Part shown: piece by piece, positions 1,903 through 41,902 of the stretch
Numbering within the stretch: the first letter of the stretch is position 1
Layout: the number at the start of each line of letters is the position of its first letter
Source of the DNA: Minisyncoccia bacterium
Lineage (GTDB): Bacteria > Patescibacteriota > Minisyncoccia > Phycocordibacterales > UBA918
Assembly (NCBI GenBank): GCA_041738755.1
Contig: JBGSPE010000011.1
Span: 70,658 to 134,657 of the forward strand
Reading direction: 5' to 3'
DNA length: 64,000 nt
Made by a program: the position numbers and the translations under genes
Notes under the pieces: model-generated
The model's input: only the letters and a program-made list of their open reading frames with translations
Databases searched by the model: none
What the model was told of the DNA's origin: nothing

Positions 1903-1965
1903 AACGCTTTGGTTCAGAGACACCATTCTATACATACAAGGAACAGTGCTTGCATATTAACAAAA

Positions 1966-2005
1966 GAAAACGGCCCCCACGCAAATGCATGGGGGTCGCT
2001 GGTTT
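1966..2005. terminator. Bidirectional rho-independent terminator hairpin between convergent genes
   Basis: cggcccccacgcaaatgcatgggggtcg stem-loop followed by ctggtttt (and aaaac on the other strand). Confidence 0.45.
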
Positions 2006-2021
2006 TGAACGAACGGAAGGA

Positions 2022-2159
2022 TCAGCCGAGCGCCACTTGCCGTTCGTAGTCATCGTCGACGGCAGGACTGCCGGTCACGTCGCTCGGAGCAAAATTGGTC
2101 ACATCGACCAGTGTCGCACCACCTTCGGTGAGAGCTGTCATTGCATCAATGAGGCGCAT
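2022..2159 (-). CDS. Small 45-aa acidic peptide ending in Gly (MRLIDAMTALTEGGATLVDVTNFAPSDVTGSPAVDDDYERQVALG); candidate Ubl-like tag or modified peptide
   Basis: Strong AAGGAG RBS 7 nt upstream of the ATG at 2159; terminator immediately downstream; GC about 58% versus about 43% in neighbours; sits directly downstream of the E1-like gene on the same strand. Confidence 0.35.
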   Translation of the reverse strand: MRLIDAMTALTEGGATLVDVTNFAPSDVTGSPAVDDDYERQVALG

Positions 2160-2217
2160 ACTCTGTCTCCTTGGGGCGGGATGCCCTTTCTCAATGTAAC
2201 GAAGGGCTACCCTTCCG

Positions 2218-2922
2218 TCAAGTTGAAGGCCAGTATTCTTGGGTACAAGTAAGTGTCCGTAGGTCAAAGTATACTCGATTAGCAATATCGTCAGTGTCGC
2301 CAACTCTCGCAAACTGCTCAAATTGCTTCAATGCTAAAGCTGTGGTTGCGTAAATGGCAGAAATAATTGACTGCGGTTCTGAACACCCACCAATATGATC
2401 AGCTTCCTTATCTGAATGCCAATATAACCACCAACAATCGCTCTGCTTTATATTGTGCGGATTGAAACAGTGTGAAATCGCAGTTTCAGCATCCATCCGG
2501 GTTTCAATGACACAGATGACTTCTTTATTTTCTTCTACTACCCTTTCCATAATGGCTCTTCGAGCCTGCATAGAATCAACACAGATACACACAACTCCAG
2601 ATAAGGGGATATGCTCAGACACTTCTTCTAAGTAGCAACGCACGTCACAACTTATATCAAGAGATCGCACATTCCGCCCAATTTCAACTGCTTTATTTCC
2701 TCCGATGTTCCCTATATCAATCCATTGGTTAGCTATGTTATGACATTCGAAAACATCAAAGTCATAGAGATGGATTGGGCTTTGCTGACGAACACCAACG
2801 CCCATTCTTGTCAGACCTTCAGCCATTCGACTCCCCATACCCCCACAGCCAATGATGTGGACGGGGTGATGGAATGTCTCGGGATTAAAAATTGCCTTGT
2901 GTCGGACTGAATCAATCATCAC
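2218..2922 (-). CDS. E1-like / ThiF-MoeB family adenylyltransferase (minimal, 234 aa)
   Basis: Rossmann motif HIIGCGGMGS and YDFDVFECHNIANQ (ThiF/E1 nucleotide-binding signature). Confidence 0.7.
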   Translation of the reverse strand: MMIDSVRHKAIFNPETFHHPVHIIGCGGMGSRMAEGLTRMGVGVRQQSPIHLYDFDVFECHNIANQWIDIGNIGGNKAVEIGRNVRSLDISCDVRCYLEEVSEHIPLSGVVCICVDSMQARRAIMERVVEENKEVICVIETRMDAETAISHCFNPHNIKQSDCWWLYWHSDKEADHIGGCSEPQSIISAIYATTALALKQFEQFARVGDTDDIANRVYFDLRTLTCTQEYWPST

Positions 2923-3463
2923 TTATCTCCTTAAGCAAGAGTGGCCAATCCTCAACATCATGATAAGGAGTTCCTGTATCATAGGTTTGAAGAGCTTTCC
3001 ATAGATGAGAAAAAGCTTTATTAATGTACCCTTTGCGTAATGACTGATAAATGACAAACTGTCCGCTAGAAATACAAAGCGGGGCTGTGGGTACCTGAAT
3101 ATCCTCATGTTTTTTATCAATAGCATGAGGATGCATAATAATTGACCTCAGTTTGCTGTGCTCATCATACACATCAATTGAATTTGTGACGTTTATAAGG
3201 CGAAAATCAATTTCCCATATCCTTCCTACCCGCTTCCGAATAAAAAAAATAACAAATTCTCCGATTTCGTAGCTGATTCCGTCCCATGTAATGACCAGCT
3301 CTGATGTTCCTACCATCAAGATATGTGGCTTATGAAACCCTACATATTGAATATTTGGGTTACGCTGCAACTCATTATATTCTGCCACTATGTCATCTGT
3401 ACTATGGAGCGGACTGCCACAAAATTCGATGTATTGTTCCAATACTGTTAATTCTGCCGGCAT
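2912..3463 (-). CDS. Putative E2-like (UBC-fold-like) protein
   Basis: HPH...(14 aa)...PLCIS resembles the HPN-Cys catalytic arrangement of E2 enzymes; overlaps the E1-like start by 11 nt (operon). Confidence 0.35.
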   Translation of the reverse strand: MPAELTVLEQYIEFCGSPLHSTDDIVAEYNELQRNPNIQYVGFHKPHILMVGTSELVITWDGISYEIGEFVIFFIRKRVGRIWEIDFRLINVTNSIDVYDEHSKLRSIIMHPHAIDKKHEDIQVPTAPLCISSGQFVIYQSLRKGYINKAFSHLWKALQTYDTGTPYHDVEDWPLLLKEISDD

Positions 3464-4288: not shown

Positions 4289-5188
4289 CTATTCGGGATT
4301 GATTACCTTGTGTCCACCAAACTGATTCCGCATCGCTGCTACTAATTTGCCTAAGTACGATGGTTGCGCGCGAGTTTGCTTCCGTTGAGCTAGGGCTGCC
4401 TCAAGCACCTTCACGTCGCCCAAGGTGGTAATGTGTTCCATTTCAAATTCAGTCTCTCCGTGCGGGACTTCGCCTTTAATCATATCAATCTGACCTTGTT
4501 CATACGCTTCACGCAACCACGAAACAAGCTTACTCGATATAATGCTTTCATGTTCGTAGGGGCGTAATACGGCTGACAGGTCAATGCCAAACATATCACT
4601 CTGTTCATGAAGAACTGTCATGCCTTCGGCAATCGCTCCCATCATGCCGTACTCAATACCGTTATGAACCATCTTCACAAAGTGTCCGGCTCCTTCTCTC
4701 CCCACCAGGGCATAGCCATCCTTGGCGGCAAGCGCCGCGAAGATATGTTCATGTATAGCAAACACCTCAGGATTTCCTCCGACCATAATCGACGCACCAT
4801 TGCGAGCGCCTTGCATACCACCTGACGTCCCACAATCAAGAAAGTGAATGTCCTTTTCTTTTAAAGCTCCGTGCCGACGAATAGAATCTTGATAAAAACT
4901 ATTTCCGCCATCAATTACGGTATCTCCGCTTGAGAGTTGTGGGACGAGTTCATCGAGCACAGCATCTACCACTCCACTTGGTACCATAAGCCAAATTACT
5001 CTTGGGCCCACAAGGGCTTGTACGAGCTGTGCCTGAGAATCAACTACTTCAATACCAGCTTTTTCTGCTTCGGCTCGCGGATCTTCGGTCTGGTTGTAGC
5101 CCACGACGCGATACCCTTTTTCAACCAACAACGTTGTCATGTTCAAACCCATCCGGCCCAAACCAATGAAACCAATTTCTTTTTGCAT
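4289..5188 (-). CDS. gnd: 6-phosphogluconate dehydrogenase, decarboxylating (short GndA-like form)
   Basis: N-terminal Rossmann IGFIGLGRMGLNM; 6PGDH catalytic region. Confidence 0.85.
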   Translation of the reverse strand: MQKEIGFIGLGRMGLNMTTLLVEKGYRVVGYNQTEDPRAEAEKAGIEVVDSQAQLVQALVGPRVIWLMVPSGVVDAVLDELVPQLSSGDTVIDGGNSFYQDSIRRHGALKEKDIHFLDCGTSGGMQGARNGASIMVGGNPEVFAIHEHIFAALAAKDGYALVGREGAGHFVKMVHNGIEYGMMGAIAEGMTVLHEQSDMFGIDLSAVLRPYEHESIISSKLVSWLREAYEQGQIDMIKGEVPHGETEFEMEHITTLGDVKVLEAALAQRKQTRAQPSYLGKLVAAMRNQFGGHKVINPE

Positions 5189-8138: not shown

Positions 8139-10232
8139 ATGAACACTGAATTTGACGTCGTTGTAATTGGAGCTGGCTCAGCCGGACTGACAGCAGCCGT
8201 TGGTTTTAAAAAAGTTGGTAAACGAGTCTTACTGATTGAACGAGAACATATTGGTGGTGAGTGTACAAACACTGGCTGCGTACCGAGCAAAGCCCTCCTT
8301 CATCACGCCAAAGCGTACTATCACGCTACACAAATTTCTGGCAAAAATACCCAGACCTCTGAATACCGAGAACGTGCCTTTCCCTATGTGCGAGGAAAGA
8401 TTGCTGAAATCTTAGAGGAAGAAACGCCCGAAGTATTTGAGAAGCTTGGTATCACAGTCGTGATGGGCGAAGCAACCTTTACAGCCCCGTGTCAGGTCGC
8501 TGTTAGTGGAGTTACCTACTCATTCAAGCGAGCCATAATTGCCACTGGTTCAAGTCCTCGCCTCATTGATATTCCTGGACTTGACCCAACGACAGTCCTC
8601 ACCAATCAAAACGTTTTCGGGCTTGATACTATTCCTGCTCGTACACTGATTATTGGAGCGGGCCCAATTGGACTCGAAATGGGACAAGCATTTGCCATGC
8701 TCGGAAGCACGGTCACGATTGCTTCAATCGATACTGAATTTGCAAAACTTGAAGACCCGGCAATTCGGCCGTTACTCCAACAAAAGTTTACCTCGCTTGG
8801 GATTACCCTCGAACTAAATGCTGTGATTCAAAAAATCGAACACGGTGAAGCTGTCTTAGCCCGCACCGTAAGCGAGGCCACTGAAACCTTCAGTGTTCCG
8901 TTTGATAAGATTTTGATTGCGATTGGAAGAGTGCCGAATCTGCCACCTGGACTTGAAGCAGCACACATCAAAGCCAGTGAGTACGGCATTACGGTTGATA
9001 GCCAATACAAAACGAGCAACAAATATGTCTATGCTATCGGTGATGTCTCACAACGAGCCAAGTTCACCCATACAGCGGATGATACCGCAAGACAAGTGGT
9101 CACCCGGGTTGTCTCTCGAGGTTTACTGCGAGTGAATAACCGAAAGGCAATACCGAAAGTAACCTACACCCAGCCAGAAATAGCGCAGGTGGGGCTTTCA
9201 TGGAATGACGCAATTGCAAAGTACGGTGAGCGGCAACTAATGCGTATTGAAATCCCATTTACAAAAAATGACAGAGCAAAGACTGAAGACGATACCACCG
9301 GTTTGCTAGTTGTGATTGCAAAGCGGCTCAATGGTGTAGTACTCGGAGCACATATCATTGGACCCGCGGCGGGAGAAATACTTACTGTGTTTACCCTCGC
9401 TATCGACCAAAAAATCTCCCTCTGGAAACTTCGTTCACTTATCTACGCATATCCGACTTATAGTCTCATCATCAAGAAAGCAGGTGATGAATTTTTTGGC
9501 CGACAATTGACTGAACTGAAATCCGACTTGAAAAACCTTTTCCGCCGCCAAGCGCCTAAACTCGTTGCCTTATTATTTTGGCTCACACTTATTATTTCGT
9601 TTCAAACGTATCGGATTGAAAATGGTCTGTCGTACTCAGACTTATTACTGAATCTTATTTCATTCTTCACAAGCACCATGTGGGGGCCAGTCATCTACAT
9701 TGGGCTTTACGCTATTCGTCCACTGGTACTATTTCCGGCCACCTTACTCACCGCCCTCTCTGGAACGTTGTTTGGATTTTGGTGGGGAGTACTCTATACC
9801 ATCGTCGGTGAAAACGCCTCAGCCAACTTCGCCTACTGGATTGGGCGCTTCTTTGGTAAAGACATCAAGCTTGAGGACTCAATTATTGGGAATTGGGTAG
9901 AAGCACTGCGCGCTCGTCCCTTTGAAGCCGTTCTCTTTATGCGTCTCTTCTATATGCCATTTGACCTTACAAACTACGGAGCTGGGATTCTTAAAATAAA
10001 TTGGTCATCATACTTTATGGCTACCTTAATTGGAATCCTCCCTGGTTTGACCACGTTTGTCGCGCTCGGAGCAGCTCTCAACCTCGCTGAGTTCAGTGAA
10101 AATGGACTTAGTTTTGATGCGTTTGACCCGCGCTTCATTGCCCTCTCAGTAGCTATCTTTGTAGTCTCAATCATCCTCTCCAAATACCTTAAACGTTGGC
10201 ACGCAGCAAAAACGAAAGTGGTGGTGAAATAA
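8139..10232 (+). CDS. Pyridine-nucleotide-disulfide oxidoreductase (class I, mercuric-reductase/lipoamide-DH-like) fused to a C-terminal DedA/TVP38 membrane domain
   Basis: FAD motif DVVVIGAGSAG; redox-active GGECTNTGCVPSK; C-terminal about 220 aa (from about 9576) with DedA-family motifs (RPLVLFP...G.LFGFWWG). Confidence 0.7.
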   Translation: MNTEFDVVVIGAGSAGLTAAVGFKKVGKRVLLIEREHIGGECTNTGCVPSKALLHHAKAYYHATQISGKNTQTSEYRERAFPYVRGKIAEILEEETPEVFEKLGITVVMGEATFTAPCQVAVSGVTYSFKRAIIATGSSPRLIDIPGLDPTTVLTNQNVFGLDTIPARTLIIGAGPIGLEMGQAFAMLGSTVTIASIDTEFAKLEDPAIRPLLQQKFTSLGITLELNAVIQKIEHGEAVLARTVSEATETFSVPFDKILIAIGRVPNLPPGLEAAHIKASEYGITVDSQYKTSNKYVYAIGDVSQRAKFTHTADDTARQVVTRVVSRGLLRVNNRKAIPKVTYTQPEIAQVGLSWNDAIAKYGERQLMRIEIPFTKNDRAKTEDDTTGLLVVIAKRLNGVVLGAHIIGPAAGEILTVFTLAIDQKISLWKLRSLIYAYPTYSLIIKKAGDEFFGRQLTELKSDLKNLFRRQAPKLVALLFWLTLIISFQTYRIENGLSYSDLLLNLISFFTSTMWGPVIYIGLYAIRPLVLFPATLLTALSGTLFGFWWGVLYTIVGENASANFAYWIGRFFGKDIKLEDSIIGNWVEALRARPFEAVLFMRLFYMPFDLTNYGAGILKINWSSYFMATLIGILPGLTTFVALGAALNLAEFSENGLSFDAFDPRFIALSVAIFVVSIILSKYLKRWHAAKTKVVVK

Positions 10233-41566: not shown

Positions 41567-41902
41567 TAATTAATGACAGAACCATGTATGGTGCAAAGCT
41601 ATGCAGAACTAGGTAAACGTCGCATACTCCTCCTTAAGACTTAGCAAAACAGCAAACGTGCGATAGGGTGAAAACGGTAGCAAAAACTGTTATTATGTTC
41701 GTTACAACACCTAAACCAGATAGTAATTTCTGGCATGGTGCAAAGAAATCCTACGCAAATAGAAACGGCCACATAAGCCGGCACTTATTTGCGTAGGTTC
41801 GCTCTCGAAAGGGAGCGGGATAATTCCGAAAGGAGTTGTCGTCGGTCTTGTGTGGCCATTTGTGTTACCAAGATTTTATAAATAAAACCTACGCAAAAAA
41901 AT

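Follow-up and report, generated by a model that had tools for sequence, protein, structure and literature searches.

A compact E1-E2-peptide cassette of Patescibacteria as a candidate ubiquitin-like conjugation system with a short linear modifier

Can an activation and conjugation relay of the ubiquitin type be built around a modifier that does not have the ubiquitin fold? The question is raised by a cluster of three genes in a stretch of 64,000 nucleotides from a Minisyncoccia bacterium (Patescibacteriota; GenBank assembly GCA_041738755.1, contig JBGSPE010000011.1, positions 70,658 to 134,657 of the forward strand), hereafter the window, from whose first letter all positions below are counted. 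An earlier note on this DNA had described three co-directional open reading frames (ORFs) on the minus strand, coding for a protein resembling ubiquitin-conjugating enzymes (E2), an adenylyltransferase resembling ubiquitin-activating enzymes (E1) and a short peptide, and all three are present where it had placed them. The reading that we favour, by a modest balance of probability, is that they form a self-contained ubiquitin-like conjugation system, whose predicted modifier is a short linear peptide and not a beta-grasp protein.

The first gene (2912..3463, minus strand) encodes a 183-aa protein in which, as the earlier note had read, an HPH motif (residues 111-113) precedes a PLCIS stretch carrying Cys130, the putative catalytic residue. 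Searches of Pfam, NCBIfam and PADLOC, including UQ_con, Prok-E2_A-E and the PADLOC E2 models, gave no match to this protein at E <= 1, and a profile of its family run against PDB sequences recovered no E2 at E <= 10. Its AlphaFold model (20 homologues), with a pLDDT (predicted local distance difference test) of 92.9 and a pTM (predicted template modelling score) of 0.87, confidently adopts the UBC (ubiquitin-conjugating) type of fold: two N-terminal helices are followed by a four-strand meander, a loop/hairpin region bearing the HPH motif and Cys130, and two further helices. When searched against 1.84 billion cluster representatives, the family profile retrieved 762 proteins at E <= 1e-3 and 144 at E <= 1e-10, mostly of 170-210 aa. 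Counted over 168 representatives of these matches, the conserved positions comprise Gly68 (167/167), Asn91 (158/166), His111 (160/167), Pro112 (167/167), His113 (164/167), Cys130 (165/166) and Trp173 (161/162); outside the active-site motif, Asn91 and Trp173 are essentially invariant. Canonical E2 enzymes show an HPN-x7-C spacing, as in UbcH5 (H75-P76-N77...C85), where the equivalent active-site stretch reads YHPNINSNGSICLD. In the present family the third residue of the motif is His, not Asn; seven residues are the commonest distance from the motif to the Cys (70 representatives), with short-loop members reading HHPHINSR-NIFCM, and the distance in the subfamily of the window is 16. We conclude that the 183-aa protein combines an E2-type fold with an E2-type active-site motif while lying outside every described E2 sequence family.

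The second gene (2218..2922, minus strand) encodes the E1-like enzyme. The earlier note had taken it to be a minimal ThiF/E1 protein of 234 aa, which is the length from a GTG at 2922. The assignment holds, but the start is probably the ATG at 2919, which shortens the protein to 233 aa, agrees with the database copy (P0011) and suits the homologues better. The protein contains the nucleotide-binding loop GCGGMGS and the segment DFDVFECHNIANQ, and Pfam ThiF (PF00899) matches its residues 21-192 with 62.4 bits (cut-off 28.1). The NCBIfam ThiF, MoeB and PRTRC models all remain far below their cut-offs, with the ThiF/MoeB equivalogs scoring 40-55 bits against 145-275, and the PADLOC E1-E2 models of the Cap2 type match just the nucleotide-binding part. 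A profile of 18 homologues compared with solved structures recovers as its best matches the active adenylation domains of UBA7, UBA6 and UBA1, followed by UBA5, ThiF, MccB, TcdA, MoeB, BubCD, PaaA and Cap2; the protein has the fold of an E1 adenylation domain. The residues invariant in these homologues include R6, GxGGxGS, D53xD55, H60-N61, Q65, K76, D115, R120, R141-M-D-A and G178-C179; this set contains the complete Gly loop and the residues for ATP and Mg (GxGGxGS, D53xD55, K76, D115 and R141, in 18 of 18). In the structural model the sole segment with a pLDDT below 50 is 178-180, a Gly-Cys loop directly before the long helix 185-206. By its position, Cys179 may be a catalytic Cys in a crossover loop and the counterpart of the loop Cys of MoeB and ATG7. 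Non-canonical E1 enzymes such as ATG7 and Cap2 have their catalytic Cys at a comparable loop position (bioRxiv 10.1101/2022.03.31.486616). The enzyme is otherwise stripped down: it has no Cys-domain insertion, second adenylation domain, rhodanese domain or N-terminal peptide-clamp region. The absence of the last is deduced from the alignments, in which residue 16 of the query already corresponds to MccB 114-117 and residue 6 to about position 121 of PaaA, such that the clamp regions of both have no equivalent in the 233 residues.

The E2-like and E1 genes appear to be functionally linked. The stop codon of the former overlaps the start of the latter, which suggests translational coupling, and a natural fusion of the two exists: the family member P0228, a protein of 465 aa (locus L127, 1202-2790, on a contig of Logan ERR3534980), has its E2-like domain at residues 11-168 and its ThiF domain at 245-430, and keeps a peptide gene of its own downstream.

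The third gene (2022..2159, minus strand) encodes a peptide of 45 aa, MRLIDAMTALTEGGATLVDVTNFAPSDVTGSPAVDDDYERQVALG, that runs from MRLIDAMTAL to YERQVALG with the stop codon directly after the Gly, and it is already called in the database copy of the locus. The earlier note had described it as an acidic peptide ending in Gly; the peptide and its terminal Gly are borne out by the homologues, but its acidity is not a family trait, net charge ranging from -8 to +4. Its homologues define a C-terminal consensus ...E-R-x-V-x-L-G: among 17 peptides, Gly occupies position -1 in 16, Leu position -2 in all 17, Val position -4 in 14, Arg position -6 in 13 and Glu position -7 in 15. The 52-aa peptide behind the fusion gene of L127 ends in ...TVSLG, which brings the terminal Gly to 17 of 18 peptides, always after a penultimate Leu, the end thus being LG and not GG. 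At the N-terminus there is a conserved helix-like motif of the type M-R-M-Q-E-A-M-A-A-L-x-G-G, and between the two ends lies a low-complexity middle, rich in G/S/T/P/A, that varies in sequence and length. The residues G/S/T/P/A/Q/N/D account for about 50-72% of these peptides; aromatic residues number 0-2 and lysines 0-5, and the peptide of the window is free of lysine. The closest pair of peptides shows a nonsynonymous divergence (dN) of 0.18 and a synonymous divergence (dS) of 1.96, a dN/dS of about 0.09, and Leu(-2) is written in four different codons with synonymous variation alone; by these substitution patterns the peptide is under purifying selection. Neither a ThiS nor a ubiquitin-family match was found for it in Pfam and NCBIfam, and its short length and polar composition are incompatible with a beta-grasp domain. 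In agreement with the earlier note, profile libraries and the annotation of the neighbours reveal no gene for a beta-grasp ubiquitin-like protein (Ubl), a JAB peptidase or a CD-NTase (cGAS/DncV-like nucleotidyltransferase) next to the cassette.

Two other interpretations of this segment were considered and rejected. A 99-aa ORF (2022-2321) that might pass for a Ubl is the peptide frame extended to a TTG start, overlapping the 3' end of the E1 gene in another frame, and all homologues begin at the MRM/MST methionine behind the ribosome-binding site. An RNA element in place of a peptide gene is countered by the lack of any Rfam family matching the region, by the conservation at the protein level and by the dN/dS cited above.

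The strength of the case lies in the recurrence of the unit. Related loci were gathered through exact-protein look-ups, species-representative genomes and metagenomes. Where the family profile gives the E1 more than 230 bits, an E2-like gene stands directly upstream in every locus whose contig reaches that far, and an ORF of 45-60 aa lies directly 3' of the E1 in every such locus with enough contig. This amounts to 18 distinct loci, namely those of the 17 peptides counted above, with the window among them, and L127. The three-gene unit thus recurs in 18 distinct loci with unrelated genomic contexts, which is far beyond chance. In an all-against-all comparison of the flanking ORFs of 17 loci, a screen for which the peptide is too short, the E1 and E2-like genes were the only ones held in common. 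The named hosts are a Candidatus Parcubacteria metagenome-assembled genome (MAG), with an E1 68% identical to that of the window, and a Candidatus Saccharibacteria MAG (54%), and the closeness of these relatives suggests a home in the candidate phyla radiation (CPR) for the cassette of the window as well; further copies come from marine (TARA) and freshwater metagenomes. On three points the earlier note had said what would tell against ubiquitin-like conjugation, and on each the observations point the other way: the 183-aa protein has a UBC-type model and a conserved Cys, the peptide accompanies the E1 with its C-terminal signature intact, and the E1 does not behave as a stray MoeB/ThiF paralogue, standing invariably between the E2-like gene and the peptide with no conserved sulfur-carrier partner gene nearby. 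The proposal of ubiquitin-like conjugation is to that extent supported.

The signals around the peptide gene are consistent with a separate mode of expression. A promoter scan identified an element at 2193..2221 (minus strand) with a -35 hexamer TTGACG (2221-2216) that overlaps the E1 stop codon, a spacer of 17 nt and a -10 hexamer TACATT (2198-2193). An element of the form TTGAC(N)-17(18) nt-TAnnnT precedes the peptide gene in 17 of 17 distinct loci, the window included, and also in L127 (the loci comprise L002, L003, L006, L010, L015, L054-L069 and L127), and its -35 box usually overlaps the stop codon of the E1. The peptide transcript is predicted to begin with a small hairpin, GGGC-ATCCC-GCCC (2174..2186, minus strand); leader folds computed with ViennaRNA place a hairpin of 4-9 bp at the same position, in differing sequences, in 17 of 18 loci, with z-scores that are individually modest (-0.6 to -3.2), and it may serve as a 5' stem-loop that stabilizes the mRNA. 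The Shine-Dalgarno sequence AAGGAG (2172-2167, minus strand) follows 7 nt before the ATG, and almost every related locus has a GGAG-type site with the same spacing. The cassette ends in an intrinsic terminator-like hairpin, CCCCCATGCATTTGCGTGGGGG, which together with its T run spans 1964..1995 (minus strand); the stem, at 1995-1974, has nine pairs, seven of them GC. Similar GC-rich hairpins with a T run lie past the peptide stop codon in L002, L003, L006 and L127, and L127 retains the promoter-like element, the ribosome-binding site, the peptide and the terminator all behind its fusion gene. Both the ribosome-binding site and the dedicated terminator had been pointed out in the earlier note. 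From these sequence elements the peptide appears to be transcribed separately from the two enzymes; a promoter of its own, a 5' hairpin and a strong ribosome-binding site would suit a tag that is used stoichiometrically and produced in larger amounts than its two catalysts.

How such a system might work can be outlined from the chemistry of the families concerned. The minimal E1, probably a homodimer like MoeB and ThiF, would bind ATP and the peptide tail ...E-R-x-V-x-L-G and adenylate the C-terminal carboxylate of Gly45. Cys179, in its flexible loop, would then attack the adenylate to form an E1~peptide thioester, from which the peptide would be passed to Cys130 of the E2-like protein, beside the invariant HPH. 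An amine, most likely a lysine of a target protein, would resolve the E2~peptide thioester with no E3 (ubiquitin ligase) taking part, and the N-terminal helix-like motif would stay free on the conjugate as a handle for the E1 and E2 or for a downstream reader. Since the peptide is translated with its Gly already terminal, no processing peptidase would be needed. A precedent exists for an E1/E2 pair that handles a disordered tail in place of a beta-grasp domain: Cap2, represented by PDB 7tsq among our structural matches, has as its substrate the C-terminal tail of a CD-NTase, a disordered and conserved segment that it binds, adenylates and conjugates (bioRxiv 10.1101/2022.03.31.486616). We also entertain, more tentatively and as something short of an even prospect, a fuller version of the proposal, by which the tag would be a disordered, ubiquitin-fold-free peptide of 45-60 aa, linked through its Gly to lysines via an E1-E2 thioester relay without E3 or deubiquitinase, and its helix would be read by, for instance, an unfoldase or protease. 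Such a tag would be a functional analogue of Pup or ssrA that runs on ubiquitin chemistry.

Several points weigh against the conjugation proposal. The evidence for it is computational throughout, consisting of sequence, predicted structure and gene context. The E1 reads H-N-I-A-N-Q where we take N-L-x-R-Q, with its Arg, to be the canonical motif by comparison with MoeB, the Arg thus being replaced by Asn. The peptide of L061 (about 910-1090) ends in ...ERRPTLS-stop, with Ser in the place of Gly; its source is a single 1.2-kb metagenome contig, so that either a genuine variant or a sequencing error may lie behind it. The comparison of flanking ORFs across loci revealed no gene for a target, an E3 or a reader near the cassette, and the cassette itself contains no gene for a deconjugating peptidase. 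The lack of such an enzyme is unusual, given that all characterised bacterial ubiquitin-like pathways include a peptidase (PMC11601596).

The same genes could be read in other ways, which differ chiefly in the fate they assign to the terminal Gly of the peptide. The relay might run as proposed but end on an acceptor other than a protein lysine, be it a lipid head group, a cell-envelope precursor or a small amine, in the way that ATG7 and ATG3 attach Atg8 to phosphatidylethanolamine. We regard this as unlikely: the one neighbour that might hint at such an acceptor, a nucleotidyl-transferase, occurs in a single lineage, at four to five loci, while neither the window nor the majority of the other loci has it; and the peptide, polar and with few aromatic residues, gives no hint of membrane association. 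A little less probable still is a role as a sulfur carrier, in which the adenylated Gly would be converted to a thiocarboxylate as in ThiS, MoaD or CysO, with the Cys-bearing 183-aa protein as persulfide donor. The carrier would then have to function without a beta-grasp fold and with an LG in place of a GG end; the supposed donor has a UBC-type fold with the HPH-x7-C motif and not the fold of a rhodanese or a cysteine desulfurase; genes of thiamine, molybdopterin or cysteine synthesis or of tRNA thiolation are not conserved nearby; and the E1 falls well short of the ThiF/MoeB equivalog cut-offs, as given above.

To a biosynthetic role, with the E1-like enzyme modifying the C-terminus of the peptide to yield a secreted or bioactive ribosomal natural product, we assign the same low probability as to the sulfur carrier. 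The possible routes would be nucleotidylation as by MccB in the microcin C pathway, dehydration as by PaaA in the pantocin pathway, or activation for macrocyclisation. The N-terminal clamp with which MccB and PaaA hold their peptides is missing from the E1, and Gly is conserved at the end of the peptide, whereas the chemistry of MccB needs a C-terminal Asn; no exporter, immunity or leader-peptidase gene stands beside the cassette, and pathways of the MccB/PaaA type are not known to use a protein of E2 fold with a conserved Cys. Between a Pup-like tag and an MccB/PaaA-like product the analysis accordingly leans towards a conjugated tag, because the E1 lacks a peptide clamp, the end is Gly and not Asn, and the Cys-bearing E2 is always present. 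The least probable of the four alternatives is that the peptide is a regulatory or inhibitory partner and that the E1 and E2 act on the C-terminus of a protein encoded elsewhere. Systems of the Cap2 type show that an E1/E2 pair can use the tail of an ordinary protein such as a CD-NTase, which speaks for this alternative. Yet the strongest conservation in the peptide falls on its last seven residues, with Leu-Gly directly before the stop codon in the manner of a substrate for an E1; across the 64-kb window none of the other real genes ends in LG, and the peptide is the only further gene that always travels with the E1 and E2.

If conjugation of a linear peptide is taken as the working model, its origin may be sought among more distant relatives. 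Homologues of the E1 with 26-32% identity along the whole protein are found in Methylomirabilota/NC10, Nitrospinae, Saccharibacteria and Solirubrobacterales, and several of their loci in the first three of these are four-gene operons (L016, L017, L019, L021, L023, L024, L025 and L027). These operons encode an E1 of about 215 aa; a protein of 370-480 aa whose C-terminal part is matched by our E2-like profile with E from 1e-4 to 1e-9; a JAB-like protein, likewise of about 215 aa, for which two of the loci give weak Prok-JAB matches; and a 76-84-aa protein that ends in ...KIRGG, ...NG or ...MG and shows a weak ThiS match (E 0.001). Most of their proteins are without a significant Pfam match, and L024 has two tandem pairs of E1 and Ubl genes. 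Since E1 relatives of about 30% identity are thus found in operons with E2, JAB-like and ThiS-like genes, the cassette of the window appears to derive by reduction from a Ubl/JAB/E1/E2 system, a change in which the JAB component would have been lost and a linear peptide would have replaced the modifier, this direction of change being inferred from the gene contents.

Among the closer loci, one lineage (L006, L010, L064, L069 and a JGI 3300056388 contig) carries one or two divergent NTP_transferase genes directly upstream of the cassette, with DUF2238, Zincin_1, GatC/GatA and LigA genes nearby in conserved order, an arrangement suggesting that the cassette has been inherited vertically there. 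The possibility that the cassette is a phage-borne or defence-island element was rejected: no cassette of the peptide type was found in the IMG/VR viral contigs, and the contexts resemble housekeeping regions. E1 genes of about 30% identity are present on phage-like contigs (L013 3532-6168 and L131-L144) alongside SNF2 and Pam3_Gp34 genes; they adjoin larger proteins with weak JAB or E2-profile matches, and none has a short LG-ended peptide.

In the window the cassette lies, as the earlier note had stated, directly downstream of a zwf-gnd-pgl cluster on the same strand, which encodes a glucose-6-phosphate dehydrogenase, a short 6-phosphogluconate dehydrogenase (6PGD) and a protein of the 6-phosphogluconolactonase type. 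The gnd gene (4289-5188, minus strand) specifies a short, 299-aa form of its enzyme, in which the match to the C-terminal 6PGD domain stops after the first 53 positions of that domain. On the other side, on the opposite strand, follow genes for an AHSA1-like protein and a SOUL protein. Elsewhere in the window, a gene at 8139-10232 (plus strand) encodes a 697-aa protein that fuses Pyr_redox_2 and a dimerisation domain to a C-terminal membrane domain of the VTT/DedA type, adjacent to genes for a thioredoxin-like protein and a membrane protein of the DsbD/CcdA type; and a LOOT RNA (Rfam RF03000) at 41708-41840 (plus strand) scores 72.5 bits against a gathering score of 46.4, a structured RNA without an assigned function.

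Neither the E2-like protein nor the peptide is represented by a relevant model of Pfam, NCBIfam or PADLOC, and we found no description of a cassette of E1, E2 and a linear peptide in the literature, although surveys of the E1 and E2 superfamilies may contain an earlier mention. Every operon type in Iyer et al. 2006 has a JAB, a Ubl or both, and the characterised bacterial modifiers are either beta-grasp proteins or, in the cyclic-oligonucleotide-based anti-phage signalling system (CBASS), the tail of a signalling enzyme (PMC11601596). A stand-alone linear-peptide modifier, if real, would mean that an E1-E2 relay can dispense with the ubiquitin fold and that the C-terminal tail alone is chemically essential. 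Under the fuller version of the proposal the cassette would, at 1.44 kb, be the smallest complete ubiquitination-type system known, housed in genome-reduced CPR bacteria. It would also add an unrecognised post-translational modification to CPR/Patescibacteria, whose biology is mostly uncharted. Three genes of this combined length would be easy to reconstitute, and a minimal pair of enzymes for ATP-driven ligation of a peptide through its C-terminus could find use in protein engineering.

Several known systems share part of this logic. In the MccB-MccA and PaaA-PaaP pathways a ThiF-fold enzyme, detectably related to the E1 of the cassette, takes as substrate the C-terminal end of a short linear peptide whose gene adjoins its own; those enzymes have an N-terminal peptide-binding domain that the E1 lacks, yield free antibiotic products and work without an E2 partner. 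MccA ends in Asn, which the chemistry of MccB requires, and PaaP is modified internally. From the ThiF-ThiS and MoeB-MoaD pairs the cassette differs in that its carrier is not a beta-grasp protein and has no GG end, that no gene for sulfur transfer or cofactor synthesis accompanies it, and that an E2-fold protein is always present. With the Pup-PafA/Dop system, and with UBact, the likeness is one of concept only, a small and largely disordered tag being joined through its C-terminal end: Pup is ligated via the side chain of its C-terminal Glu by a ligase resembling glutamine synthetase, without E1 or E2, and profile libraries detected no similarity between Pup and the peptide and no gene of the PafA/Dop type in the cassette.

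Closer parallels are found among the systems that use both an E1 and an E2. In Type II CBASS, Cap2, a fusion of E2 and E1, acts on the C-terminal tail of a CD-NTase and is reversed by Cap3. The operon of the window contains no CD-NTase, effector or Cap3 JAB peptidase, and no neighbour is conserved across the loci; in the cassette the tail belongs to a free peptide of 45-60 aa with its own gene and promoter and not to a signalling enzyme, the E2 and E1 are separate proteins in most members, and the context is chromosomal, probably in CPR genomes, and not that of a defence island. The Bil (BilA-D) and Bub (BubA-E) systems resemble the cassette in having a separate E1 and E2, a dedicated modifier and no E3, and BubB, BubCD and BilD occur among the structural matches. 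Their modifiers are beta-grasp Ubl proteins and both encode peptidases (JAB or DUF6527; PMC11601596). The E1 of Bil has tandem adenylation domains and a Cys domain, and Bub forms oxyesters at Tyr and Ser; in contrast, the cassette has a single-domain E1 of 233 aa, both of its enzymes keep their Cys, and neither the cassette nor its neighbourhood contains a beta-grasp Ubl, a JAB or DUF6527 peptidase, an E1 of the IAD-AAD-CYS organisation of Bil or the Ser/Tyr active sites of Bub. The nearest relatives found outside the cassette family are the distant four-gene operons described above, which keep both a modifier of beta-grasp size and a JAB-like protein.

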